A DNA stretch of 64,000 nt from Actinomycetota bacterium (lineage in GTDB: Bacteria > Actinomycetota > Acidimicrobiia > IMCC26256 > JACDBD01). Of the stretch, positions 5,508-59,119 are shown piece after piece. Positions within the stretch are counted from its first letter, which is position 1, and every line of letters begins with the position of its first letter. The translations under genes were made by a program, and so were the position numbers. The notes under the pieces are model-generated. The model did no database searches and was not told the DNA's origin. It saw nothing but the letters and a program-made list of their open reading frames with translations. Location of the stretch: assembly GCA_052390575.1 (NCBI GenBank), contig JBQTGU010000050.1, forward strand, positions 262 to 64,261. Reading direction: 5' to 3'.

Positions 5508-7931
5508 TTGCCCGACGAGGCCCCCGGCGCCGAACCCGGCGTTGCCCCCCACGACGAGCTCGAGGCGGAGCAGCGCTACCTCGACGCTGCCTACGACCGC
5601 CTCGACGAGATGCGGCAGGCCGCCCTGCGGGTCGCCGAGGGCTACGCCGACGTCCAGCGGGGCGGCACCCACCAGGCCCGACTCGAGCGCGATGCCGCCA
5701 CCGCGCTCACCCGCCGCCGGCTGGCCGCGCTCGACATCGGCGACAACCCGCTCTCGTTCGGCCGGCTCGACCTCGAGCGTGACGGCGACGGGGACGGGGA
5801 CGGGGACGACGGGCCGTACTACGTGGGCCGGCTCTCGGTCATGGACGCCGACCAGAACCCGCTCGTCATCGACTGGCGCGCCCCGGTGGCGGAGCCGTTC
5901 TACCGGGCGACGCCGGTCGAGCCCATGGGGGTCGCCCGCCGGCGTCACTTCCTCACCCGGGGCCGCGAGCTCGTCGGCATCGACGACGAGATCCTCGACG
6001 CCGACGCCACCGCCGAGGCCGGCTACACGATCGTCGGGGAGGGCGCCCTGCTCGCCGAGCTCGAGCGCGACCGCACCGGCCGCATGCGTGACATCGTCGC
6101 CACCATCCAGGCCGAGCAGGACGAGGCCATCCGTGCCGACCTGCCCGGTGTGCTGATCGTCGCCGGCGGCCCCGGCACCGGCAAGACCGCGGTTGCGCTG
6201 CACCGCGCCGCCTACCTCCTCTACACCCACCGCCGGCGCCTGGCGGCGCGTGGCGTGCTCCTCGTCGGGCCGAACCCGATCTTTCTCCACTACATCGACC
6301 AGGTCCTGCCGTCCCTCGGCGAGGACGAGGTCCAGCTGGCCACCCCGGCCGCGCTCAAGCCCCAGGTGGCGGTGCGGGCCGTCGACCGCGACTCGGTCGT
6401 GGCGGTCAAGGGGGATGCCCGGATGGCGGACGTGATCGAGCGTGCCCTCGCCGACCGCGAGCGCGGCCTGCCGCGCGACGTCGTGGTCACGCTCGACGGG
6501 CACCGGCTGCGCCTGCGGGCCCGCGACTCCGCCCGCATCGTGGAACGGGCCCGCCGGCGGCGGGGGAGCCACAACGAGCGCCGGCCCTCCGTCGCCCGTG
6601 CCGTGATCGACCACCTGCGCGACCAGTACCGCCGCTCGCTGGTCCAGGTCTACGAGCAGGGGGCCGAGGCGCGGCGCGCCGCACCACCCGCGCTCTTCGG
6701 GCTCGAGGACGACGACGACGCCGAAGTCGACCTCCCGGTGGCGGCTGCGCTGGCGCGGGGCGAACGGGCGCCGGACGAGTGGGAAGCGGAGCTCGCGGCC
6801 CGGATCCGCTCGCTGCCCGAGGTACGCGCAGCGCTCGAGCGGATGTGGCCGGTGCTCACCGGCGCCGAGCTCGTCCACGACCTCTTCAGCTTCGTCGCGC
6901 TCATCCGCTCCGCGGCCGACGGAACGCTGAGCCGGGCGGAGCAGGCGGGGCTCCACCGCCCGAGAGCCGGGAACATCCGCGAGGTCCCCTGGACCGCCGC
7001 CGACGTACCGCTGATCGACGAGGCCGACGCGTTGCTCGGCCCGGTCGAGGCGGCGCGGCCCAAGTCGCGGCGGCGACGGCGACGCACCGCGGAGGAGGCG
7101 GAGCAGCTCGCGGCCGCGACCCGCGTCGTCGAGGAGCTCGGCCTCGGCGCGTACACGACCGCCGCCGAAGTCGCTCAGCGCTACGCGGGAGCGCCCGCGG
7201 CCAACGGCGACGACGGGACCGGCGAGCTGCGCACGTACGGCCACGTCCTCGTCGACGAAGCCCAGGACTTGACCGCGATGCAGTGGCGGATGCTGGAGCG
7301 GCGCTGCCCGTCGGGTTCGATGACGCTGGTGGGTGACCCCGGCCAGTCCAGCCAGCCGGGCGCGGTCGCCGACTGGGACACGGTCCTGACCCACCTCCCC
7401 GGACACCAGGCCCCGCGGCGGGTCACCCTCAGCGTGAATTACCGCACCCCGGCCGAGATCATGGCCGTCGCCGACCGGGTGCTCGCCGCCGCGGCCGCGG
7501 CGGTGGAGCCGGTGCGGTCGGTGCGGTCGACCGGCGACCGGCCCCGGTTCGAACCGGTGAGTGAGGGCGCGCTCGCAAGCGCCGCCGCCACCGCGGCGCG
7601 ACGTGCGAGCGCGGCCGGCGGAACGGTGGCGGTGGTCGCGCCCCCCGACCGGCACGGGGAGCTGGTGGACGCGCTGGGTGACCTCGGCGCGGCGGCCGGG
7701 ACCGCCGAGGCACTCGACTCGCCGGTCGCGGTCTTCACGCCGGTGGAGGTCAAGGGGCTCGAGTTCGACCATGTCGTCGTGGTCGAGCCCGCCGCCCTCG
7801 TCGCGCCGGACCCCGCCGGCCTCCGATTGCTCTACGTCACGCTGACCCGGGCGACGCGGACGCTCACGGTGGTTCACGCCCAGGCATTGCCGGAAGCGTT
7901 GGAACCCGTGTCCACCCAGGAGAGCCGATGA
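5508..7931 (+). CDS. helD: HelD-like UvrD-family helicase (RNA polymerase recycling ATPase)
   Basis: The N-terminal coiled-coil region is followed by YVGRLSVMDADQNPLVIDWRAPVAEPFY. Walker A is GGPGTGKT. VLVDEAQDLT and a C-terminal GLEFDHVVVVEP are present. An AGGAG Shine-Dalgarno (SD) sequence lies 6 nt upstream of the TTG start. Confidence 0.8.
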   Translation: MPDEAPGAEPGVAPHDELEAEQRYLDAAYDRLDEMRQAALRVAEGYADVQRGGTHQARLERDAATALTRRRLAALDIGDNPLSFGRLDLERDGDGDGDGDDGPYYVGRLSVMDADQNPLVIDWRAPVAEPFYRATPVEPMGVARRRHFLTRGRELVGIDDEILDADATAEAGYTIVGEGALLAELERDRTGRMRDIVATIQAEQDEAIRADLPGVLIVAGGPGTGKTAVALHRAAYLLYTHRRRLAARGVLLVGPNPIFLHYIDQVLPSLGEDEVQLATPAALKPQVAVRAVDRDSVVAVKGDARMADVIERALADRERGLPRDVVVTLDGHRLRLRARDSARIVERARRRRGSHNERRPSVARAVIDHLRDQYRRSLVQVYEQGAEARRAAPPALFGLEDDDDAEVDLPVAAALARGERAPDEWEAELAARIRSLPEVRAALERMWPVLTGAELVHDLFSFVALIRSAADGTLSRAEQAGLHRPRAGNIREVPWTAADVPLIDEADALLGPVEAARPKSRRRRRRTAEEAEQLAAATRVVEELGLGAYTTAAEVAQRYAGAPAANGDDGTGELRTYGHVLVDEAQDLTAMQWRMLERRCPSGSMTLVGDPGQSSQPGAVADWDTVLTHLPGHQAPRRVTLSVNYRTPAEIMAVADRVLAAAAAAVEPVRSVRSTGDRPRFEPVSEGALASAAATAARRASAAGGTVAVVAPPDRHGELVDALGDLGAAAGTAEALDSPVAVFTPVEVKGLEFDHVVVVEPAALVAPDPAGLRLLYVTLTRATRTLTVVHAQALPEALEPVSTQESR

Positions 7932-47934: not shown

Positions 47935-49332
47935 CTACAGGAACCGCCGCAGGATCCTCTGCTTCCGCTTCGTGTACGGCGGGTACGCGAACGCAGGATC
48001 AACCCGGGTCGACTTGGCCAGGATCCCCTTGCGGTGGCTGAACGTCTCGAAGCCGGCGCGGCCGTGGTACGCGCCCATGCCGCTGGCGCCGACGCCGCCG
48101 AAGGGAAGGTCGGGCACCGCCACCTGGAGCACGGTCGCGTTGATCCCGGCGCCGCCCGAGGAGGTGCGCGTCAGCACCCGGTCTTGGGTATCGCTCGAAC
48201 CCGAGAACACATAGAGCGCCAGTGGCCGGTCGCGCTGGTTGACGAACTCGACGGCCTCGTCGGTATCCGTCACGGGGAGTACGGGAAGGACGGGCCCGAA
48301 GACCTCCTCGGCCATGACGGCCGAGTCAGGCGCGACGTTCCGCAGGACCGTGGGCGCGATGTAGCGCTGCTCGGCGTCGGTGTCGCCTCCGACCACCGCC
48401 GTGCCGTCCGCGAGCAGCGCCTCGAGTCGCCGGAAATGGCGGTCGTTCACGATGCGGGCGTAGTCGGGACTCGCTTTGGGGTCGGGCCCGTAGAAGTCGG
48501 TGACCACCTTGGCGACCCGTTCGACGAAGGCGTCCTCGACCTCCCGGGCGACGAGGACGTAGTCGGGCGCGATGCAGGTCTGGCCGGCGTTGAGGAACTT
48601 GCCCCACGCCACCCGCCGGGCGGCGACGTCGAGGTCGGCGTCGGCGGCGACGATCACCGGGCTCTTGCCGCCCAGCTCGAGCGTGACCGGCGTCAGGTGC
48701 TTCGCGGCCGCCTCCATCACGACCCGCCCGACCTGTCCGTTGCCGGTGTAGAAGACGTAGTCGAAGCGCTCGGTCAGCAGGGCCTGGGTCTCGGCCACGC
48801 CCCCCTCGACGACCGCGATGCAGTCGCGGTCGAGGTACTCGGGGATCAGCCGGGCGAGCGTGGCCGACGTGTGCATCGAGACCTCGGATGGCTTGGCGAC
48901 GACGCAGTTGCCCGCCGCGATCGCACCGACCATTGGTGACAGCAGCAGCTGCACCGGATAGTTCCACGGCGCGATCACGAGCGCGACCCCGAGCGGCTCG
49001 TGCTGCACCCGCGCCTTGCCCGGCCTTTGGGCCAACGGTGTCCACACCTTCTCCGGCTTCGCCCACGACTTGAAGTGCTTGAGCGCGTGCTCGATCTCGC
49101 TCACCACGATGGCGATGTCGCTGACCCAGGCCTCGAGCGGAGGCTTGCCCAGGTCGGCGCCGAGGGCGCCGAGGAGCTCGTCCTCGCGCTCCTTGAGCAT
49201 CTTCTTCATGCCGCGGAGCTGCTCGCGGCGCCACTTGAGCGGGCGGGTCCGGCCCGACTCGAACGCGGACCGCAGTACGGGAACGAGCGCGCCGACGTCG
49301 GTCGTCGTGGTCTCGGGCGTCAGCGTCTGCAT
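47935..49332 (-). CDS. Aldehyde dehydrogenase family protein (class 3-like)
   Basis: ELGGKSP, the catalytic-Cys region GQTCIAPDY, and EEVFGPVLPV. Confidence 0.9.
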   Translation of the reverse strand: MQTLTPETTTTDVGALVPVLRSAFESGRTRPLKWRREQLRGMKKMLKEREDELLGALGADLGKPPLEAWVSDIAIVVSEIEHALKHFKSWAKPEKVWTPLAQRPGKARVQHEPLGVALVIAPWNYPVQLLLSPMVGAIAAGNCVVAKPSEVSMHTSATLARLIPEYLDRDCIAVVEGGVAETQALLTERFDYVFYTGNGQVGRVVMEAAAKHLTPVTLELGGKSPVIVAADADLDVAARRVAWGKFLNAGQTCIAPDYVLVAREVEDAFVERVAKVVTDFYGPDPKASPDYARIVNDRHFRRLEALLADGTAVVGGDTDAEQRYIAPTVLRNVAPDSAVMAEEVFGPVLPVLPVTDTDEAVEFVNQRDRPLALYVFSGSSDTQDRVLTRTSSGGAGINATVLQVAVPDLPFGGVGASGMGAYHGRAGFETFSHRKGILAKSTRVDPAFAYPPYTKRKQRILRRFL

Positions 49333-49397: not shown

Positions 49398-50099
49398 TCA
49401 GAGGAGCGTCAGCAGCCCGCGTAGGTCCTCGAGCATGGGCACGGCGGCCCGGGTCGGCTGGTCGGGAGCGCTCGGATCGGGCCAGTGGCCGTCCCGCGCC
49501 AGGTAGGCCGGCGTCATCCCCACCGCCCGGGGCCCTTCGACGTCGGGCCCCCACGTGTCGCCCACGAACAGCGCGTCCGCCGCCACCACTCCTACCTTCT
49601 CGAGCGTGTAGCGGAAGATCCGGGGGTGGGGCTTACGGGCGCCCGCCCACGCCGACGAGACCTCGACGTCGAAGAAGTCCGTGAGGCCGACGTCGTCGAC
49701 GGCCTCGGCGAGGTCCCAGTCCCAGTTCGAGCAGACCGCGAGCCGCAGGCCGCGGCGGCGCAGCTCGCCCAGCACGTCCGCCACCTCCGGGTAGGGCTCG
49801 AGCACCCGCTGCGACGCGCCCGACCGGAGCTTCTGGAGGATCACCTCGTATTCGCCCGGGTGCACGTCGGTCTCCGCCAGCCTGCCGAGGAGGCGCTCCT
49901 GTTGCCAGGCGACGTAGTGGTCGCGGCTCTGCGAGTGCTCGAGGTGCTCGATGCCGTCCACCCCCTCGTTCCACCAGCGGCTGAGCGTGTCGCGCGGCAG
50001 CTCGTACCCGTGCTCGGCCAGCACCGAGTCGATCGACACCCAGTGCGTCGCCTCCGCCAGGGTGCCGTAGAAGTCGAGAAGGACGCCTTCGTACGGCAC
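49398..50099 (-). CDS. HAD family hydrolase
   Basis: GVLLDFYGTLA (motif I variant), CSNWD, and FVGDTWGPDVEG (motif IV). Confidence 0.75.
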   Translation of the reverse strand: MPYEGVLLDFYGTLAEATHWVSIDSVLAEHGYELPRDTLSRWWNEGVDGIEHLEHSQSRDHYVAWQQERLLGRLAETDVHPGEYEVILQKLRSGASQRVLEPYPEVADVLGELRRRGLRLAVCSNWDWDLAEAVDDVGLTDFFDVEVSSAWAGARKPHPRIFRYTLEKVGVVAADALFVGDTWGPDVEGPRAVGMTPAYLARDGHWPDPSAPDQPTRAAVPMLEDLRGLLTLL

Positions 50100-50204
50100 G
50101 CGCCGATTGTCGCAGGCCGGGCGACGTTTCTGAGTAGCGATTACTCACGACGACATGGGCGCGCCGTGGTTGGCTCGCGGCAGTTCCTTACCAGGAGGCG
50201 GGTC

Positions 50205-50426
50205 ATGGACGACCAAACACCCACACAGCCCCAGCAGCCGTGGTACCTGCGCCCGCGCCACGGCCTGTGGCTCGGGCCACTCCTCATCGTCGTGTGCGTG
50301 GCCCTGCGCTTCGGGTGGGGCGGGATCGAAGGCCCGCCGTTCCCGTTCTGGGGCCTCGCGTACGTCACCGGGGCGGCGGGGATCCTTCTGACCTACGGCG
50401 CGGTGGTGGAGCGAGGCCGCGGGTAA
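50205..50426 (+). CDS. Small hypothetical membrane protein (73 aa)
   Basis: An AGGAGG SD sequence lies 6 nt upstream of the ATG. There are two hydrophobic helices. Confidence 0.5.
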   Translation: MDDQTPTQPQQPWYLRPRHGLWLGPLLIVVCVALRFGWGGIEGPPFPFWGLAYVTGAAGILLTYGAVVERGRG

Positions 50427-50431
50427 GCGCC

Positions 50432-50545
50432 TCAGTCGTCCTCGTCGTTGCGGTCGGGGTGTGCCTCGTCGAGGTGGAGCTTGAGCTCCCACTGGGCGGT
50501 GAACCGGAGCTCGCAATACGGGCACTGATGCGATTCGATGCTCAT
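50432..50545 (-). CDS. 37-aa C2H2 zinc-finger micro-protein (below the ORF-track size cutoff)
   Basis: The minus-strand translation is MSIESHQCPYCELRFTAQWELKLHLDEAHPDRNDEDD. This matches C-X2-C-X3-F-X5-L-X2-H-X4-H exactly. 32 of 37 codons end in G or C. The ATG lies 5 nt after the crotonase stop codon, with GGAG upstream. Confidence 0.6.
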   Translation of the reverse strand: MSIESHQCPYCELRFTAQWELKLHLDEAHPDRNDEDD

Positions 50546-50550
50546 GGCGT

Positions 50551-51372
50551 TCACTCCGTGCCGGCGCGCTCGATCAGCGCGCCGAGGTCGAGCTCGCCCT
50601 CCCGGGTCTGGGCCCCGAGCGCGAGCGCGCCCTCCATGCGGGCGTCCAGGTCGGGATCGGCGAGCGTGCGGTTGAACTGGTACGCCTCCTCGATCAGGCC
50701 GTCGGTGATCGTGCCGGTGGCGGCGTCCACGGCGACTTTGGCCCGGCGCACCGCGTCGGGTGGGAACGCCGCGATCCGGCGGGCGAGCCGCTCGACGAAC
50801 GGGCCGAGCTCGGCGGGCGGCAGCGCGCGATTCACCCAGCCGTAGCGCTCGGCGGTCTCGGCGTCGAAGTCGGCACAGCCGAGCACGATCTCGAGGGCGC
50901 GGCCCCGACCCATCAGGCGGGGGAGGCGTTGGGTGCCGCTACCCCCGGGGATGATCCCGACCGACACCTCGGGCTGGCTCAGGACCGCGTCGCTGGCGGC
51001 GAAGCGCAGGTCGAGCGAGAGCGCGAACTCGCTGCCACCACCCCGGGCCCGTCCCTCGATCTGGGCCATCGTGACCTGCGGGAGGGTGCGCCACTGCTCC
51101 ATGAACTGGTGGATGCCGGTGATTTCCGAGCTCCGTTCGGTGACGTCACGGGGCAGCTGCTGGATCAGCTGCAGATCGGCGTGGGCGATGAAGAAGTCGG
51201 GGTCGGCGCTTCGCACCACGACGACGCGCTCGTCACGGTCCGGCAACGAGTTCGCCACCCGCCACAGGTCGCCGATCAGGGTGGCGTCGAGCAGGTTCAC
51301 CGGCGGATGGTCGAGAGTGACGAAGGCGACGCCGGCGTCGACGTCGACGTGCAGGCTCTCGTACTTGCTCAT
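50551..51372 (-). CDS. Enoyl-CoA hydratase/isomerase (crotonase) family protein
   Basis: Crotonase-fold pattern (VTLDHPPVNLL ... GRARGGGSEFAL). The ATG overlaps the GMC gene's stop codon. Confidence 0.85.
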   Translation of the reverse strand: MSKYESLHVDVDAGVAFVTLDHPPVNLLDATLIGDLWRVANSLPDRDERVVVVRSADPDFFIAHADLQLIQQLPRDVTERSSEITGIHQFMEQWRTLPQVTMAQIEGRARGGGSEFALSLDLRFAASDAVLSQPEVSVGIIPGGSGTQRLPRLMGRGRALEIVLGCADFDAETAERYGWVNRALPPAELGPFVERLARRIAAFPPDAVRRAKVAVDAATGTITDGLIEEAYQFNRTLADPDLDARMEGALALGAQTREGELDLGALIERAGTE

Positions 51373-53081
51373 CGCGGCAGCATGGCATCCGCGGGCGGGC
51401 GCTGCGAGCGGAGAGGGTCGAGGCCGGCGAGCTCACGACACGCGCGGATCGCCAACGCGACCAGGGTGAGCGTCGGGCCGTACCCCGTCGACGTCGGGAA
51501 CACCGACGAGTCGGCGCAGACCATGTTCTCGACGTCGTGGAAGCGGCTCCAGCGGTCGACGACGCTCGTGGCGGGGTCGTCGCCCATGCGACAGGTACCC
51601 ATCACGTGGCGCGAAACGGGCGCGGGCCCGAGCGCGCCGTCGTCCCCGTTCACCGGCGGGGAGGTCGTGGTGATCGTCCACTCCGCGCCTGCCTCCTTCA
51701 AGATCGCCTCGAGCTGGGGGGCGACGTAGGCCGAGCACGCCACCTCGTGGCGGTGGGGCGCATACGTCACGCGCCCGGCCGGGAAGCCCCACACGTCGCG
51801 CACCTTGGGATCGAGATCGACCCGGTTGGCCGGTTGCGGCAGGTCCTCGCCCTGCACCGTGAACACCCACATGCGGTCGCGTAACGGCGACTCGAGCATG
51901 AGCTGGGTGTGCAGCTCGCCGGGCGGCAGGTGCACCGCTTCCATGAGCGGACCGACGGCGCCGCCGTGCTCGACGATCCCACCCCGGAAGTAGGGGAGAC
52001 CGGCCGCGCGGGCGGCCGTCCGGCTCTCGTCGGTGACGAGCATGTGGTCGTCGTGCAGGTGCGTGACCGACCGGCCCCGGTGTCCATGAAGGCGGAACGG
52101 GAACGATCCCACCACCAGCGTCTGGAAATGAAACATCAGGTGCCGCCCGACCAGCCCCGACGAGTTGCCCACGCCGCCGCGCAGCAACAGCCGGGGGGTC
52201 TCGAACGCGCCCGCGGCCAGCACCACGTGGTCGGCCGCGACCTCGTGCTCGGCGCCGTCGGCGTCGAGGTAGCGCACGCCGCGGGCATGCCTGCCGGTCT
52301 GGTCGAGGACGACCGTGCTGACGTGGGACTCGGGGCGGACCTCGCAGCGGCCGCTGCGCAGCGCATGGCGCAGCGGGGCGACCGGGTCGCCCTTGGCGTC
52401 GATGGGGCAGCCGAAGAACCCGCAGAAGCCGCAGTTGTTGCACGCGGGCCGACCGTCGTACTCGACGCTGTTCACGCCCGTGGGCGCGCGGTAGGGGTGG
52501 TACCCGAGTCGGTCGGCGGCCTCGCTCGACAACACGGCGCCGTACATGTCGGGGCCGGGCGGCATCGGGTACGGCCCCGACCGCCACGCCGCGAACGGGT
52601 TGGCGCCGGCCTCGCCGGCCACGCCCACGATCCGCTCTGCCTCGGCGTAGTACGGCTCGAGCTCGTCGTAGCCGAGGGGCCAGTCGACGACATCCGCCCC
52701 GTCGATGGGCCCGAGCTCCGAGCGCGGCCGCAAGTCGACCTCGCGGAAGCGGGGGAGCTTGCCGTCGGCGTGGAAGCCGCCGCCGCCGACACCCGAGGGA
52801 AGATTGTTCACGTCGCCGGTGAACGTGCGCTCCCCGTCCGCCTCGCTGTGCCGGAACGTGCGCGGCTCGAGGAGAGGGTCGGGGCCGAGGAAGTGGCGGA
52901 ACATGAACTTCAGCTCGTCGTTCGAGATGTCACCGGTCGGCGCGAACGGCGGCTCCAACGACAGCAGGTGGTTGCGCCCCTTCTCGAGCACGATCACCGA
53001 CCATCCCGCGTCGGTGAGGACGTGCGCGGCGGTCGCGCCGGCGGGCCCGCTGCCGACGACGACCGCGTCGCAGTCGGTCAC
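51369..53081 (-). CDS. GMC family FAD-dependent oxidoreductase (gluconate 2-dehydrogenase flavoprotein-like)
   Basis: DAVVVGSGPAGATAA FAD-binding motif; 570 aa. The C-terminal region has HVMGTCRMG. Confidence 0.85.
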   Translation of the reverse strand: MTDCDAVVVGSGPAGATAAHVLTDAGWSVIVLEKGRNHLLSLEPPFAPTGDISNDELKFMFRHFLGPDPLLEPRTFRHSEADGERTFTGDVNNLPSGVGGGGFHADGKLPRFREVDLRPRSELGPIDGADVVDWPLGYDELEPYYAEAERIVGVAGEAGANPFAAWRSGPYPMPPGPDMYGAVLSSEAADRLGYHPYRAPTGVNSVEYDGRPACNNCGFCGFFGCPIDAKGDPVAPLRHALRSGRCEVRPESHVSTVVLDQTGRHARGVRYLDADGAEHEVAADHVVLAAGAFETPRLLLRGGVGNSSGLVGRHLMFHFQTLVVGSFPFRLHGHRGRSVTHLHDDHMLVTDESRTAARAAGLPYFRGGIVEHGGAVGPLMEAVHLPPGELHTQLMLESPLRDRMWVFTVQGEDLPQPANRVDLDPKVRDVWGFPAGRVTYAPHRHEVACSAYVAPQLEAILKEAGAEWTITTTSPPVNGDDGALGPAPVSRHVMGTCRMGDDPATSVVDRWSRFHDVENMVCADSSVFPTSTGYGPTLTLVALAIRACRELAGLDPLRSQRPPADAMLPR

Positions 53082-53365
53082 ACCCGGGTGGCGCCCGCCG
53101 CGACGAGGGCGTCGACCAGCCGGCGGGCGCCCTCCGCCTGCTCGGGCGGGAACGACAGCCCGCTACGCCCGTCGTACTTCCCGCGGTGATTCAGGCGCAG
53201 CAGGGAACGGCCCTTGTGCTCGCCCTCGCGGATCTCGAGCCGGCTCACGAGGAACCGCACGCTCGGTGACTCGGCTCCCTCGATGGAACGGAAGATCTCG
53301 AGTACGCGCCCGTCGAAGACGACAACGAGGTCGTCCTCGACCACGAGCTCCAGCGGTTCACTCAC
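53078..53365 (-). CDS. Small hypothetical protein (95 aa) between the subunit-3-like gene and the GMC flavoprotein gene
   Basis: The GTG start is embedded in GTGAGTGA and overlaps the upstream stop codon. Its own stop codon overlaps the GMC ATG. I recognise no motif. Confidence 0.5.
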   Translation of the reverse strand: MSEPLELVVEDDLVVVFDGRVLEIFRSIEGAESPSVRFLVSRLEIREGEHKGRSLLRLNHRGKYDGRSGLSFPPEQAEGARRLVDALVAAGATRV

Positions 53366-53924
53366 GACCGGAGACCTCCTCGTCGGTGTACCCGCGTGGT
53401 TGCACGTCGCCGGGGAACTGCACCGCCTGCCACGCGGCACCGCCGTGGTTGCCACCGTACTCGGGGGCCGCGTAGGCGCCCTCGCACGCGTGCTGATAGA
53501 GCAGCGCCTTGAACTCGGGCACGGCGTCGAGGCGCGCGTCCTGCTCCTCCGCGGGCAGGGCTGCGTAGTCGGCGCCCAGCGCGGCGAGCCCCTCGACGTA
53601 CCGCTCCTGCCAGCCGGCCACCGGTCCGTTGAACTCGCGCTCGGGGATGCCGCGCGAGCCCTCGACGCGGGTCCGCCACGCCAGCTCCTCGAGGGGGGAG
53701 AGCGGCAGAAACCGGTCGAACGACGCGTCGCCGCCGGCCCGCCCGGAGAACGGGCCCCCGGCCCAGATGCGGGGAGGGTCGACCGCGAACGCGCCCAGGA
53801 CCCCGTCGACGTAGTCGGCGACGCCGAGGGCCCGAGCGCCGGGATGGGCGTCAGCGGCGGGAATCAGGCGCTCGCAGGCCGCCTCGACGACCGCGTATTG
53901 CTCGGGCGTCAGCCAGGCGGGCAC
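53358..53924 (-). CDS. Gluconate 2-dehydrogenase subunit 3 family protein
   Basis: LTPEQYAVVEAACERLIPADAHPGARALGVADYVDGVL matches the typical pattern of that family. The start is uncertain: I used the GTG at 53924, and longer versions would overlap the divergent gene. No obvious Tat signal. Confidence 0.65.
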   Translation of the reverse strand: MPAWLTPEQYAVVEAACERLIPAADAHPGARALGVADYVDGVLGAFAVDPPRIWAGGPFSGRAGGDASFDRFLPLSPLEELAWRTRVEGSRGIPEREFNGPVAGWQERYVEGLAALGADYAALPAEEQDARLDAVPEFKALLYQHACEGAYAAPEYGGNHGGAAWQAVQFPGDVQPRGYTDEEVSGRE

Positions 53925-54024
53925 GGGGCGGGAGCCTACCGATCGCCGAAATGAGTATCGGGTACTCAGGCGCGCGCGGACCGGCCGTGGTCCAATGCCC
54001 ACAGCGGAACCAGAGGAGAAACCA

Positions 54025-54426
54025 GTGGCCAAGACCATCTTCAAGTGGACGACGTTCCTCGCCCCTGTGGTCATCGCGGCCGGGATCGGGGCGTTGATCT
54101 ACGCCTTCGCCAGCGACAGCCACTACGACCCCAACGCGGTGGTGACCGACTCGAACGGGTTCACGTCGCGCGGTGCCTACGTCACCAACTCCGCTTGGGG
54201 GTGGGTCGGCGGGATCGTGCTCTCGGTCGGATGCATCGCGCTCTTCGTCGGCATCTTCGGGTGGGTGTTCAGCGCCGTCTGGGGCGGCGCGAGCAAGGCG
54301 TTGCAGGGCATCTCGGTGCCATCGACGGGCATCACGCCGTCGGGGCCGGCTCCCGGCGTCGCCACGCCCCGCTGGGCGAGCGCGTCCGCGCCCGCGTCCA
54401 CGCCCGCGGGGCCGGGCAAGACGTAG
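54025..54426 (+). CDS. Hypothetical membrane protein (2 TM helices, Pro/Ala/Ser-rich tail)
   Basis: The GTG start follows a GAGGAG SD sequence by 6 nt. The track start is 53995. Confidence 0.55.
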   Translation: MAKTIFKWTTFLAPVVIAAGIGALIYAFASDSHYDPNAVVTDSNGFTSRGAYVTNSAWGWVGGIVLSVGCIALFVGIFGWVFSAVWGGASKALQGISVPSTGITPSGPAPGVATPRWASASAPASTPAGPGKT

Positions 54427-55173: not shown

Positions 55174-57237
55174 CTACGACGCGCTGACGGCGTAGTTGCC
55201 GTGCTCGTCGACCCGGGCGCCGTGCCCGGGCGGCAGCACGAGCACGGTGAACGGCTCCTCGACCAACGCGGGACCCGAGACTTCGGCTCCCGGCCCGAGC
55301 ACCGTGCCGTCGTAGACGGGCGTGTCGACGAACTCGATGCCGAAGTACGCCGGCCGCGAGCCGCGGCGAGCCTGCTGGGCGTCGGCCACAGTGCCGACCT
55401 CGGCCAGCCGGTCCGGCTTCGGTGTGTTGCCCCGGCTGACCAGGCGCACGCCCCGGAGGAGCGGCTGCTGGTTGCGGAAGCAGAAGCCGCGCTCGCGCTC
55501 GTGCTGGTCGTGGAAGCGCTCGGTCAGGTCGAGCAACCCGGGTTCGTCGAGCGCGGCGCCCTCCGGCACCGCCACGCTCATGTCGAAGTTCTGCCCCGGG
55601 TAACACATCTGCGCGTACAGGGCGACGTCGACGTTGTCGGCGGCGAGGCCGGTGGGCTCCATCTCCTTCCGGGCTTCGTCGGTGAGCTCGTGCATCAGCC
55701 CGTGGAGCCGACCCAGGTCCACCTGCGAGAGGGGTACCACGTAGGCCCGCACCATGTCGACGACGTAGTCAGCCACGAGGACGCCCAACGCCGAGAACGC
55801 CGGTGCCGCTTTCGGCACGACGATGCGGTCGATCCCCAGCTCGGCCGCGATGGCCCACGCGTGCACGGGGCCGTTGCCGCCGTAAGCGATGAGCGAGAGC
55901 TCGCGGGCGTCGGCGCCGTGCCCCGCCAGCACCCGGCGGGTGGCGTTGGCCATGTTGGCGTTCACGATCCGCTCGATGCCCCAGGCAGCTTCGACGACGT
56001 CGAGGCCGAGCGGCTCACCCACGTCGCGTTCGATCGCCCGGCGGGCCCCGTCGACGTCGAGTGTCATGCGACCACCGGCGAACCCGTCGACGGGGAGATA
56101 GCCGAGGACGGCGTCGGCATCGGTGACGGTGGGGCGTTCGCCACCGCGCCCGTAGCAGACCGGCCCCGGTTCCGAGCCCGCGCTCTCCGGGCCGACCAGC
56201 AGCGCGCCCTGGCGCACCCGCGCGATCGATCCGCCGCCGGCGCCGACGCTCTGCACGTCGACCATCGGGAGTCCGATGTAATAGCGGTAGCGCCAGTTCC
56301 AGTCGGTCTTGATCTCAGGTCGGCCGCCGCGCACGAGGCAGAGATCGAAGCTGGTCCCGCCCATGTCGACCGAGACGAAGTCGTCGACGCCGGCCTTTCC
56401 CGCCGCCAGCGCCGCCCCCATCACGCCGCCGGTGGGGCCGGACGCGAGCAGCGACACCGCCCGCCGCGACACGTAGTCGGGCGGCATCACGCCGCCGGTC
56501 GACTGCATGATCAGCAGCTGCCCGGCGTATCCGGCGGCCCGCAGCTTCTCCTGGAGCTGACCGATGTAGGCGGCGATGCGGGGGGCGACGTAGGCGTTGA
56601 CGAGAGTGGTCGAGGTGCGCTCGAACTCCGGGCCCCGCGGCATCACCTCGTGCGAGAGGGAGATGTGGGCGACGTCGGGGAACTCCTCCCGGATGATCTC
56701 GGCGGCGCGCCGTTCGTGCTCCGGGTTCACGAAGCTGAACAGGAACATGACCGCGACCGAGTCGACGCCCAGCTTGCGCAACCGCTGCACGCCTCGACGC
56801 ACCGCCTCCTCGTCGAGCGGTTTCAGCACGTCGCCCTCGAAGCTCATCCGCTCGGGGATCGGGATGCGGGCGCGCCGCCGCGCGATCGGCGGGGGGGCAG
56901 GGTACGACGGGTCCCAGATCTGCTCCTTGTGGACCCGCCGCATCTCGATCTCGTCGCGGTGGCCTTCGGTCACGAGCAGGCCGGTGGCGGCGCCGTTCAT
57001 CTCGATCATGGTGTTGTCGGCAGTGGTCGTGCCGTGGACGAGGATGTCGACGTCGGCGCAGAAGTCGCCCACGGGCACTGCGAACCGCTCGGCTAGCTGT
57101 TCGAGGCCGTTCATGACGCCGGTCGACTGGTCGTCGAGGGTCGTCGGCGTCTTGTCGAGGACGACGTGGCCGTCGGGCGTGACGCAGATCAGGTCGGTGA
57201 ACGTGCCGCCGACGTCGATACCGACCCGATAACCCAT
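55174..57237 (-). CDS. Hydantoinase/oxoprolinase family protein, A subunit
   Basis: GIDVGGTFTD N-terminal ATPase motif; 687 aa. It is adjacent to the B subunit. Confidence 0.9.
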   Translation of the reverse strand: MGYRVGIDVGGTFTDLICVTPDGHVVLDKTPTTLDDQSTGVMNGLEQLAERFAVPVGDFCADVDILVHGTTTADNTMIEMNGAATGLLVTEGHRDEIEMRRVHKEQIWDPSYPAPPPIARRRARIPIPERMSFEGDVLKPLDEEAVRRGVQRLRKLGVDSVAVMFLFSFVNPEHERRAAEIIREEFPDVAHISLSHEVMPRGPEFERTSTTLVNAYVAPRIAAYIGQLQEKLRAAGYAGQLLIMQSTGGVMPPDYVSRRAVSLLASGPTGGVMGAALAAGKAGVDDFVSVDMGGTSFDLCLVRGGRPEIKTDWNWRYRYYIGLPMVDVQSVGAGGGSIARVRQGALLVGPESAGSEPGPVCYGRGGERPTVTDADAVLGYLPVDGFAGGRMTLDVDGARRAIERDVGEPLGLDVVEAAWGIERIVNANMANATRRVLAGHGADARELSLIAYGGNGPVHAWAIAAELGIDRIVVPKAAPAFSALGVLVADYVVDMVRAYVVPLSQVDLGRLHGLMHELTDEARKEMEPTGLAADNVDVALYAQMCYPGQNFDMSVAVPEGAALDEPGLLDLTERFHDQHERERGFCFRNQQPLLRGVRLVSRGNTPKPDRLAEVGTVADAQQARRGSRPAYFGIEFVDTPVYDGTVLGPGAEVSGPALVEEPFTVLVLPPGHGARVDEHGNYAVSAS

Positions 57238-57238
57238 C

Positions 57239-59119
57239 TCAGCCGCGTCGTTCCGCCCGCAGGGCGGCCGTTGCCTCCTCGTCGACGGCGAGGGTCAGCT
57301 CCTCGAGCGACCCGGTGAGGACGACGCCGTACTCACGCTCGGCGCCGGCGACGCTCACGTACTCGTCGAGCACGTCGTCGAGGACGGCCTGCGGGTGGCG
57401 ATCGAGCGGGTTGCCCCAGCCGCCGCCTCCGCCGTAGTCGTACATGATCCGCTCGCCCGCGCTGATCGGCACCCAGTCCGCGGTGTGCTGCACGACGAAC
57501 GGGTCGTCGGAGCCGTAGCGGATGACCATCTTGTTGGGCTCGCCGTTCGTGCCGCCGGCGATGCCGGGCATCGGGTACTTCATCCCGACGACGTACGTGT
57601 ACACCTTGGCGTCGACCCGGACTTCCTTCTCGTAGTGGCTCCCGCACAGCCCCCGCCACTGGCCGGCGCCGCCGGAGTCGGTGCGGTAGTCGCGGCTCCA
57701 CTGCACGTGCGGGTACAGGCTCTCGTTGATCTCGGCCGTCGCCTTCCACAGGTTGCCGAACGACGCGTTCTGCGCGCCCCAGGCGTCCATGCCCTTGGCC
57801 GCGTTGCACCAGCCCGCGTACACCTCGGCGGAGTGGTCGGTGAACTTCTGGCCCGTGCGGGGGTCGACACCCACGATGATCGTGGGGATCCCGGTCTTGT
57901 AGGTCTGGGGCACCGCCTTCTCCGGCAGCACGCCCTGCATCGCGACTGCGATCACCTCGCCGACGTCGGCGCCGGGATGGTGCGTGCCCGCGCTCACCGG
58001 CCGGTCGCCGTGGGGGTTGAGGACACAACCCTGCGGCACGACCAGCTTGATCTGGTCGAAGAACCCCTCGTTCTTGGGGATCTCCGGATCCATCATCGAC
58101 GCGATCTGGCCGATCGTGTACCCGCGCGTGTTCCCGAACGTCGACCAGGCCTGGATCTCCTGGCGGGTGTCGCTGCCGGTGTAGTCGATGGTGAGGTCCT
58201 CACCGGCGACGGTGATCTTCACGTGCAAGTGGATGTCGGGATGGCCGAGCGGGTCGTGGTCGACGTAGGCGTCCCCCTCGTAGACGCCGTCGGGCCAGGC
58301 CGCCACCTCCTCGCGGAACCGGCCGGCGGCGTAATCGATCATGTAGTCCACGGCTTCTTCGACGGTTGCGGCACCATGACGGTCGAGTAGGTCGCTCAGC
58401 CGCTTGGCCGCGAGCTGGGCCGCGCCGATCTGCGCCCGCAGGTCGCCGATGTAGTCGGGCAGACGGTTGTTGGCCTGCATAGCGTAGAGGACGTCGCGGC
58501 GCTCGACCCCCCGGTCGATGAGCTTCACCGCCGGCCAGCGCGCGCCCTCGCCCCAGATGTCGTTGGCGGTGACGTTGTAGCCGCCCGGCACCGCGCCGCC
58601 GGTGTCGCCGTGGTGGCACTGGATGCTGGCGATGAGCACCATCCGCCGGCCGCCCTGCCCATCGTCGGCGAAGATCGGCGCGAACACGTTGTAGTCGGGC
58701 AGGTGCCCGCCGCCGTGGTACGGGTCGTTGCCGACGAACACGTCGCCCTCGTGGAAGTCGTCGGCGCCGAAGAACTCGAGCGCGAACCGCACCGGCAGGG
58801 TCGAGGTCAGCATGAACTGGGGGATCCCGACCGAGAGGGCGGCCAGCCGCCCCTTGCCGTCCAGGATCGTGGCGTTGCGCTCGTTGCTCTGGTTGAGGAT
58901 CGGGGTGGTCGCGGTGCGCGAGACGTAGGTCGCCATCTCGAAGCAGACGGTCTCCATCGCGCCCCGGATCACCTCGGCGGTGACCGGGTCGACGGTGGGG
59001 TGCTCGGCCAGGCGACCCCGGTGGCCCGCGAGCTGGACGAGATCGACGTTCACGGTGGCCCCCTCGTCATGTTTTGCGTCGGCCTGGCTGAACTCCGGTG
59101 AACCTGACGCCGACGTCAC
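57239..59119 (-). CDS. Hydantoinase B/oxoprolinase family protein
   Basis: DPVTAEVIRGAMETV N-terminal pattern, about 600 aa, directly upstream of the A subunit. The exact start is uncertain. Confidence 0.85.
   Translation of the reverse strand: MTSASGSPEFSQADAKHDEGATVNVDLVQLAGHRGRLAEHPTVDPVTAEVIRGAMETVCFEMATYVSRTATTPILNQSNERNATILDGKGRLAALSVGIPQFMLTSTLPVRFALEFFGADDFHEGDVFVGNDPYHGGGHLPDYNVFAPIFADDGQGGRRMVLIASIQCHHGDTGGAVPGGYNVTANDIWGEGARWPAVKLIDRGVERRDVLYAMQANNRLPDYIGDLRAQIGAAQLAAKRLSDLLDRHGAATVEEAVDYMIDYAAGRFREEVAAWPDGVYEGDAYVDHDPLGHPDIHLHVKITVAGEDLTIDYTGSDTRQEIQAWSTFGNTRGYTIGQIASMMDPEIPKNEGFFDQIKLVVPQGCVLNPHGDRPVSAGTHHPGADVGEVIAVAMQGVLPEKAVPQTYKTGIPTIIVGVDPRTGQKFTDHSAEVYAGWCNAAKGMDAWGAQNASFGNLWKATAEINESLYPHVQWSRDYRTDSGGAGQWRGLCGSHYEKEVRVDAKVYTYVVGMKYPMPGIAGGTNGEPNKMVIRYGSDDPFVVQHTADWVPISAGERIMYDYGGGGGWGNPLDRHPQAVLDDVLDEYVSVAGAEREYGVVLTGSLEELTLAVDEEATAALRAERRG

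Follow-up and report, generated by a model that had tools for sequence, protein, structure and literature searches.

Can a bacterial gene of only 37 codons encode a genuine classical Cys2His2 (C2H2) zinc finger, and if so, what is its product likely to do? In the literature, the classical C2H2 finger is treated as essentially eukaryotic, and Ros/MucR, a type with a different structure, is accepted as the "prokaryotic zinc finger"; classical fingers were described in 2013 as "practically absent in bacteria," at 0.003% of genes (PMC3541406). The question is raised here by a 64,000-nt stretch of DNA (the window), in which a minus-strand ORF at 50432..50545, behind an enoyl-CoA hydratase/isomerase (crotonase, ECH) gene, had been predicted to be an unannotated C2H2 finger gene.

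A 37-codon reading frame behind a crotonase gene

The ORF runs from ATG to TGA on the minus strand and encodes the 37-aa product MSIESHQCPYCELRFTAQWELKLHLDEAHPDRNDEDD, exactly the translation given in the original prediction. Its candidate zinc ligands are C8 (codon 50524-50522), C11 (50515-50513), H24 (50476-50474), and H29 (50461-50459), arranged as C8-X2-C11-X12-H24-X4-H29 together with F15 and L21, and the protein ends in the acidic tail PDRNDEDD. The ECH stop codon, TGA at 50553-50551, is followed by 5 nt (ACGCC) and then by the finger ATG at 50545-50543. A GGAG Shine-Dalgarno (SD)-like element at 50554..50557 (minus strand) lies within the last ECH codons, 8 nt 5' of this ATG, so that both the 5-nt distance from the crotonase stop and the upstream GGAG, as originally described, are borne out by the sequence. 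A GTG at 50554, which would give a 40-aa protein and a GTGA overlap with the ECH stop, was rejected as the start, having no in-frame counterpart in orthologues; we place the start at ATG 50545 because all orthologues begin at the M/V-S-I/T-E position.

Codon-position composition of the ORF (GC1 25, GC2 12, and GC3 33 of 37) is typical of true genes in this window (70.6% GC); the GC3 of 32/37 reported earlier was one too low. Across all six frames of the 64 kb, the strict pattern C-X2-C-X3-F-X5-L-X2-H-X3-5-H turns up a single time, none of 200 shuffles produced it, and the chance mean of a loose C2H2 pattern is 0.24. Scanning 49900-50700 for promoters and terminators found none, and Rfam returned no match in the finger region of the window.

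Conservation of the reading frame and its crotonase linkage

An initial protein search, for which the 40-aa GTG-extended version of the finger served as the query, returned five short soil-metagenome proteins, 82-92% identical over the aligned region. From the contigs of these matches and a metagenome scan, we assembled 14 distinct orthologous variants, window included, which share 65-94% identity and come from soil metagenomes and Acidimicrobiia MAGs. The original prediction had proposed looking for homologues downstream of crotonase genes, and that is where they were found: an ECH orthologue (67-89% identical) lies directly 5' of the finger in 14/14 variants. The spacing between the two genes is -35, -4 (six variants), +2 (two), +4 (four), or +5 nt, the -4 spacings being ATGA or GTGA overlaps. 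Both an ATG or GTG start and the GGAG are kept in 6/6 orthologous loci whose upstream sequence was inspected.

Substitutions in the orthologues follow the coding frame. Pairwise pS is 0.25-0.53 and pN 0.04-0.09 over 32 gap-free codons (pN/pS 0.10-0.26), variable alignment columns fall on codon positions 1, 2, and 3 in the ratio 8/5/17, and all tail length differences are in frame. The checks proposed at the outset on synonymous sites and on the four ligands gave the pattern of a protein-coding gene, with third positions varying most and the Cys and His residues invariant across 71 aligned family members. As judged from these alignments, the finger ORF is under protein-level purifying selection, and 50432-50545 (minus strand) is a real, conserved gene, in keeping with the claim that an unannotated gene lies here; orthologues, selection, and the constant crotonase linkage all point the same way.

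Two ways of explaining the ORF without a separate protein can be set against these data. It might be an untranslated frame that arose by chance in GC-rich intergenic or 3' UTR sequence: it is very short, falls under the gene-caller size threshold in the source annotation, and its own protein is not in the protein collection searched. Chance does not readily produce the strict pattern, as the shuffles show, and the 14 orthologues with their low pN/pS, third-position variation, and in-frame length changes, along with hundreds of clusters in a wider family, make this explanation extremely improbable; the comparative data effectively refute it. Alternatively, the finger could be a C-terminal extension of the crotonase produced by programmed frameshifting or readthrough. 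The frame of the ORF relative to ECH is indeed constant (+2/-1), in gapped and overlapping arrangements alike, but the finger has its own conserved ATG or GTG with GGAG at SD distance, the GTGA/ATGA overlaps are typical of termination-reinitiation coupling, and the same finger is free-standing in other contexts, so we give an extension of this kind hardly any credence.

Sequence pattern, profile matches, and predicted fold of a classical finger

The ligands of the finger have the classical spacing C-X2-4-C-X12-H-X3-5-H, and the C2H2 hydrophobic core (an aromatic residue at C2+4 and Leu at H1-3) is present, with F15 invariant and L21 at least 90% conserved. Against PF00096 (zf-C2H2), the window protein scores 21.3 bits (E = 3.6e-4), below the gathering threshold of 25.2, and its other Pfam matches within the zf-C2H2 clan are all sub-threshold as well; 51 of the 71 family members match PF00096 at E <= 0.01, the best at 5.7e-6. 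Assignment to zf-Di19 (PF05605, a 54-position two-finger domain) was rejected, as the match covered only positions 2-29 and its 21.7 bits fell short of the 27.5-bit cutoff, and no NCBIfam model matches the finger. When the family profile was compared with PDB sequences, it matched ZFY (7znf, E = 3.7e-7), ZNF524 (E = 7.6e-6), and CTCF (E = 1.5e-3).

An AlphaFold2 (AF2) run with the 71-sequence alignment predicted a beta-beta-alpha fold (pLDDT 78.5) in which residues 6-7 and 14-15 form the strands and residues 18-28 the helix. The best 50 Foldseek matches of this model in the PDB are all classical fingers, among them ZNF524, CTCF, ZBTB7A, and ZFY, most of them superposing at an rmsd of 0.4-1.8 A over 24-32 columns, with E-values that are weak only on account of the tiny size of the domain. 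By pattern, profile, and predicted fold, then, the window protein is a classical eukaryote-type C2H2 finger, and the original claim of a match to the consensus, Phe and Leu included, holds at all three levels. Because the four ligands and the Phe/Leu core are in place, structural Zn(II) binding by C8, C11, H24, and H29 is very likely.

Gene cluster around the finger

The finger sits within a cluster of metabolic genes whose order recurs in related loci: hydantoinase B and A, an M15 peptidase on the opposite strand, a gluconate 2-dehydrogenase subunit-3-like gene (Gluconate_2-dh3), a GMC oxidoreductase, EthD in some loci, and ECH; then the finger, a HAD hydrolase, an aldehyde dehydrogenase or Amidohydro_2 gene, a cold-shock protein, a glyoxalase, an acyl-CoA dehydrogenase, and a CoA ligase. 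In the window, the cluster is headed by the hydantoinase/oxoprolinase (caprolactamase-like) genes at 55174..59119, with the B subunit at about 57239-59119 (minus strand, from our own gene calling) and the A subunit at 55174-57237 (minus strand, Pfam and NCBIfam), an order common to L013 and L099. The Gluconate_2-dh3-like gene occupies 53358..54074 (minus strand; PF13618 and tblastn to related loci), and its start probably lies inside this interval, because the homologues are 186-191 aa long. The GMC-family FAD oxidoreductase gene, 51369..53081 (minus strand; Pfam GMC_oxred_N/C), overlaps ECH by 4 nt, and its synteny is kept in L007, L010, L013, and L020; L010 is GCA_050743365.1, whose finger protein is labelled Acidimicrobiia bacterium by NCBI. 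A link of the GMC enzyme to mycofactocin was considered and discarded, the MftG model scoring 80 bits against a cutoff of 387. The ECH gene itself, 50551..51372 (minus strand), is identified by Pfam ECH_1 (1.2e-32) and by 14 orthologous pairs, and the nearest ECH proteins (88%) carry the label Acidimicrobiia bacterium.

On the other side of the finger lie the HAD hydrolase (49398-50099) and aldehyde dehydrogenase (47935-49332) genes, both on the minus strand. In related contigs, the HAD gene stands directly 3' of the finger and the aldehyde dehydrogenase gene after it, all on the same strand; in L001, L008, and L020, this pair begins 15-22 nt past the finger. In the window, a convergent ORF of ~74 aa with two TM segments (about 50202-50426, plus strand; its translation begins MDDQTPTQPQQPWYLRPRHGLWLGPLLIVVCVALRF) separates the finger from HAD and aldehyde dehydrogenase. 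L018 has this ORF at the corresponding position (77% identity over 70 aa), and other relatives are without it. The description of the finger as the fifth and last cistron of an operon thus stands in part: it is last in the window and in L007, but not in L001, L008, and L020, where HAD and aldehyde dehydrogenase follow.

A second element of that operon, the "small protein" cistron at 53078-53455 (minus strand), is doubtful, as it has no counterpart in related loci. Over its first ~35 aa, this 125-aa ORF only re-reads the Gluconate_2-dh3 3' end in another frame; the ~90 aa that follow (EPLELVVEDDLVVVFDGRVLEIFRS...) are protein-like in appearance and match neither Pfam nor any related locus. Related loci have 0-87 nt at this place, versus 277 nt in the window, and the ORF is possibly an inserted small gene specific to the window.

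One related locus, a 792-kb metagenome contig (L099), has a syntenic hydantoinase-Gluconate_2-dh3-GMC-ECH arrangement, with an ECH 76% identical to that of the window, and no C2H2 ORF in 16.8 kb. From this we conclude that the finger is an accessory to the cluster and that ECH in itself can do without it. Downstream (3') of its ECH, L099 carries a MoxR/DUF58/VWA module, and its GMC gene was called in two pieces. At the far left end of the window, on the plus strand, lies a group II intron, which Rfam matched at 128-263 (D1-D4-4, 98.5 bits) and 1997-2072 (Intron_gpII, 41.5 bits) and which presumably carries an ORF between these two places; Rfam had no other matches in the window.

A wider family of short single-finger proteins

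To place the finger among other proteins, we searched a profile of the six closest orthologues against 1.84 billion representative proteins. It matched eukaryote-like multi-finger proteins, with E-values down to 1e-31 (summed over many fingers), and also many short single-finger proteins. Alignment of the short members gave the signature Q-C-P-x-C-E-L-R-F-x4-E-L-x2-H-x4-H-P, and we define the Acidimicrobiia-type QCPxCELRF family by its presence within a protein of about 37-80 aa. Q7, C8, P9, C11, E12, L13, R14, F15, E20, H24, and H29 are invariant in the 71 aligned members, and the window protein has every one of them. A second profile search put the family at no fewer than 893 clusters (90% identity) at E <= 1e-3; among 120 clusters listed, most proteins are 37-65 aa long and some are ~90-aa two-finger forms (e.g., P0156-P0168). 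A few members are named "C2H2-type zinc finger protein" by NCBI, under Acidimicrobiia or Acidimicrobiales bacterium. We found no dedicated Pfam or NCBIfam model for the family, most of whose members are uncalled or "hypothetical," and no paper on it. Single-finger C2H2 micro-proteins had been expected to be rare and poorly described in bacteria; poorly described they are, but with at least 893 clusters, some of them named by NCBI, they are not rare.

Comparison of 80 metagenome loci divided the family into subfamilies that differ from one another in tail motif and in synteny. Subfamily a, with its acidic tail, M-S-I-E start, and W at helix +2, abuts the ECH orthologue; it comprises 14 variants, and the window protein fits it. 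Members of subfamily b (tail ...HPDRxVPEREY) lie behind a ~900-aa polytopic membrane protein or overlap an AMP-binding enzyme gene, convergent with a thiolase gene, those of subfamily c (tail ...DPNDPRPL) lie 5' of a PutA-like proline/aldehyde dehydrogenase, and subfamily d is marked by an Arg-rich tail (RRRRR). Subfamily e (tail ...DDDT) is divergent from an SDR/MaoC pair and lies 5' of a VanW protein. The upstream neighbor of subfamily b in L015, L031, L032, L042, L052, and L054 is a polytopic membrane protein of ~800-940 aa; the one sequence inspected, from L031, has an N-terminal CxxC...CxxC zinc ribbon, and the L015 member has no recorded Pfam domain.

Subfamily e also has an invariant 21-nt motif, GAACGTAGCAGCGCGACACTG, 6-10 nt 5' of the start codon (e.g., L071 5963-5982). 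It is present in L048, L058-L060, L062, L064-L067, L070, L071, L076, L077, L080, L083, L091, L092, and L095-L097 as a single copy per locus with diverging flanks, and is absent from the window. Rfam has no match to this motif, which may serve as an operator or form part of a 5' leader.

Elsewhere in the family, the finger is fused in frame to the N terminus of other domains: an aldehyde dehydrogenase (L068, ~1157-1447), a tandem universal stress protein (USP) domain (L049, ~6001-6969), and a pterin-4a-carbinolamine dehydratase-like domain (P0123). Genes tightly coupled upstream of other members encode AMP-binding enzymes, the polytopic membrane protein, and a P-type ATPase. The ATPase case is an 81-aa "hypothetical protein" beginning MPISQCPRCELKFTSVSEMRWHLREDHPRE (WP_172169900.1; L098 3989-4234), which is encoded 7 nt 3' of a HAD-IC P-type ATPase gene on the Pseudonocardia broussonetiae plasmid NZ_CP053565.1; it is the sole family member found in a cultured organism, in a sampling that covered cultured species poorly. 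When one genome per GTDB species was scanned, the sole match was a Micromonospora 787-aa radical-SAM-like protein (L005), which we set aside as a chance match of 13 residues. Neither INPHARED nor IMG/VR held a family match that would point to a viral or phage origin.

A possible protein partner and competing roles

What might the finger do? Our leading but tentative reading, to which we assign a probability of about 40%, is that it is a translated, translationally coupled, zinc-dependent protein-interaction module for an enzyme of the cluster; translation, zinc binding, and the partner role are all things we infer. Translation of a genuine 37-residue protein would be coupled to that of the crotonase through a shared SD inside the ECH 3' end, across a 5-nt gap in the window and a 4-nt overlap in 6 of the 13 other orthologues. 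One Zn(II) held by Cys8, Cys11, His24, and His29 would then support a beta-beta-alpha fold with a short acidic tail, and the protein would act by binding other proteins rather than by reading DNA. It would serve as a small adaptor or accessory subunit, and its partner would be one of the enzymes of the catabolic cluster (hydantoinase, GMC, ECH, HAD, and aldehyde dehydrogenase), with ECH the likeliest.

We favor a protein-interaction module because of the acidity of the finger, its non-canonical contact positions, the subfamily tails, the translational coupling, and the fusions to enzymes. Of 105 family members, 104 have a finger core with a net charge between -1 and -4, and the whole proteins average -4.9, with the window protein at -7 (pI 4.5). 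For comparison, the profile of the six closest orthologues also matched 116 multi-finger proteins, whose 1,195 fingers have a mean charge of +1.8, with only 15% at or below -1. At helix positions -1, 2, 3, and 6, the family has A, N, or S; W, A, or N; an invariant E; and D, L, or F, respectively, where the usual base-contacting residues of C2H2 fingers are Arg, Lys, His, Asn, and Gln; the strand-2 position that usually carries a phosphate-contacting Lys or Arg is an invariant Leu. Of the two roles first suggested for the finger, a metal-dependent partner protein would fit this strong acidity better than a small regulator. Counting against the partner model are a Rosetta-stone test, in which none of the 120 top-ranking ECH homologues was fused to a finger, the finger-less cluster of L099, the stand-alone genes in other subfamilies, the RRRRR tail of one of them, and the score of the window protein under the Pfam zf-C2H2 gathering threshold; the 21-nt motif of subfamily e could in addition reflect autoregulation by a nucleic-acid-binding protein.

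That motif, lying beside the start codon, is also among the reasons to consider a small nucleic-acid-binding regulator of the cluster or of its own mRNA, perhaps oligomeric or partnered. Binding to DNA or RNA is the best-known activity of classical C2H2 fingers, the structural neighbors found by Foldseek are all DNA-bound fingers, the Arg-rich tail of subfamily d would suit such a role, and AFV1p06, a single-finger protein of an archaeal virus, is a DNA binder (PMC3541406). The window protein, however, is acidic in both core and tail, nearly all family cores share this property, and the base- and phosphate-contact positions are Ala/Trp/Glu/Leu plus the invariant Leu. A single finger, moreover, reads only about 3 bp, and the gene lies mid-operon, coupled to an enzyme gene and in no regulatory position, which leaves a regulator unlikely in our estimate. 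Similarly unlikely, in our view, is a zinc- or redox-responsive element, whether a zinc buffer or donor for nearby metalloenzymes or a thiol switch in which oxidation would release zinc and alter the activity or stability of a partner. Zinc-thiolate redox switches such as RsrA are established in Actinomycetota, and the neighborhoods are rich in metal-dependent proteins (Amidohydro_2, hydantoinase-like carboxylase/lactamase relatives, M15 peptidase, Zn-ADH, glyoxalase, and P-type ATPase), but such enzyme families are common in every actinobacterial genome, and the invariant non-ligand residues Q7, P9, E12, L13, R14, and E20 argue for a defined recognition surface and against a simple reservoir of metal. 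This possibility partly overlaps with the zinc-dependent partner module, and the two are compatible.

Extended to the whole family, the partner module becomes a broader and more speculative proposal, which we regard as possible but doubtful: an undescribed, paralogously expanded family of stand-alone, eukaryote-type C2H2 fingers in bacteria, recruited as acidic zinc-dependent protein-binding adaptors and not to read DNA, each subfamily locked to its own partner. Such a family might span Acidimicrobiia and at least some Actinomycetes, as the Pseudonocardia plasmid would suggest, and its conceivable partners would include the crotonase, products of the acyl-CoA ligase/thiolase loci, the PutA-like dehydrogenase, the VanW protein, and the P-type ATPase. 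If this is true, bacteria have a history of the classical finger that is their own, and the finger has an ancestral or alternative function other than nucleic acid binding, which would bear on the debated origin of eukaryotic C2H2 fingers.

Significance and relation to known zinc fingers

The finger described here is a minimal, 37-residue, sequence-significant classical C2H2 domain under purifying selection in bacteria, and it belongs to a family with several genomic settings, most of whose members have slipped through a systematic gap in annotation. It is small enough to be synthesized, and so offers small-protein work a test case for zinc binding, partners, and redox sensitivity, as well as a bacterial data point on the origin of eukaryotic fingers and on whether protein binding predates DNA reading.

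Among known systems, MbtH-like proteins and other small accessory subunits encoded beside their enzyme partners offer an analogy of working mode only, that of a small, conserved protein whose gene is co-transcribed and translationally coupled with those of various enzymes, and in some cases joined to one of them as a fusion. The finger has no sequence or fold relationship to them, and its own partner is a proposed one. With the Ros/MucR proteins of alpha-proteobacteria, the finger shares a bacterial host and a Cys2His2-type zinc site. Ros/MucR proteins, unlike the finger, are basic, oligomeric, H-NS-like DNA binders, and their ligand spacing is shorter (C-X2-C-X9-H-X3-4-H). Membership in that group was rejected on the X12 spacing, 37-aa length, and beta-beta-alpha prediction of the finger, against ~58-87 aa and beta-beta-beta-alpha-alpha for ROS_MUCR, and a Pfam scan of the finger gave no ROS_MUCR match at E <= 0.1.

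Haloarchaeal C(P)XCG micro-proteins have zinc-ribbon-like folds and, like the finger, are stand-alone prokaryotic zinc-finger microproteins. They are built from two C(P)XCG knuckles with Cys4 sites, whereas the finger combines one CPxC knuckle with two helix His residues; it was excluded from this type, having a single C-P-Y-C followed by Glu and His as the other ligands. The haloarchaeal one-domain proteins (e.g., HVO_0758 and HVO_2753) are under 70 aa and have diverse roles other than that of transcription factor (PMC6562870, PMC10716476). AFV1p06, from a crenarchaeal virus, is likewise a small protein of the prokaryotic world built on one classical beta-beta-alpha finger; it binds DNA, had no bacterial homologues in the study that described it, and, as its authors proposed, may also contact other proteins through a hydrophobic face of its sheet that is exposed (PMC3541406). 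The present family differs from this viral/archaeal protein in being chromosomal and acidic, without matches in the viral collections searched, and comparison of the family profile with the PDB gave no significant sequence link to crenarchaeal viral fingers (SSV B-129, 2wbt, only at E = 0.75).

The closest resemblance is to the TFIIIA/ZFY-type C2H2 fingers of the PF00096 clan, with which the finger shares the C-X2-C-X12-H-X4-H spacing, the Phe/Leu core, and the predicted beta-beta-alpha fold; its H-X4-H variant is also seen in the "even" fingers of ZFY. Unlike eukaryotic C2H2 proteins, it is bacterial and consists of one finger as the whole protein, with no TGEKP-linked array, and it has an acidic core and tail, invariant non-ligand residues (Q-C-P-x-C-E-L-R-F ... 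E-L), and coupling to a metabolic enzyme gene. The C2H2 fold and motif, and the generic domain name on some NCBI records, are thus already known; what is unusual is their presence in a bacterium, in a protein that consists of one finger only, is acidic, has extra invariant residues, and is encoded in an operon in coupling with metabolic enzyme genes.
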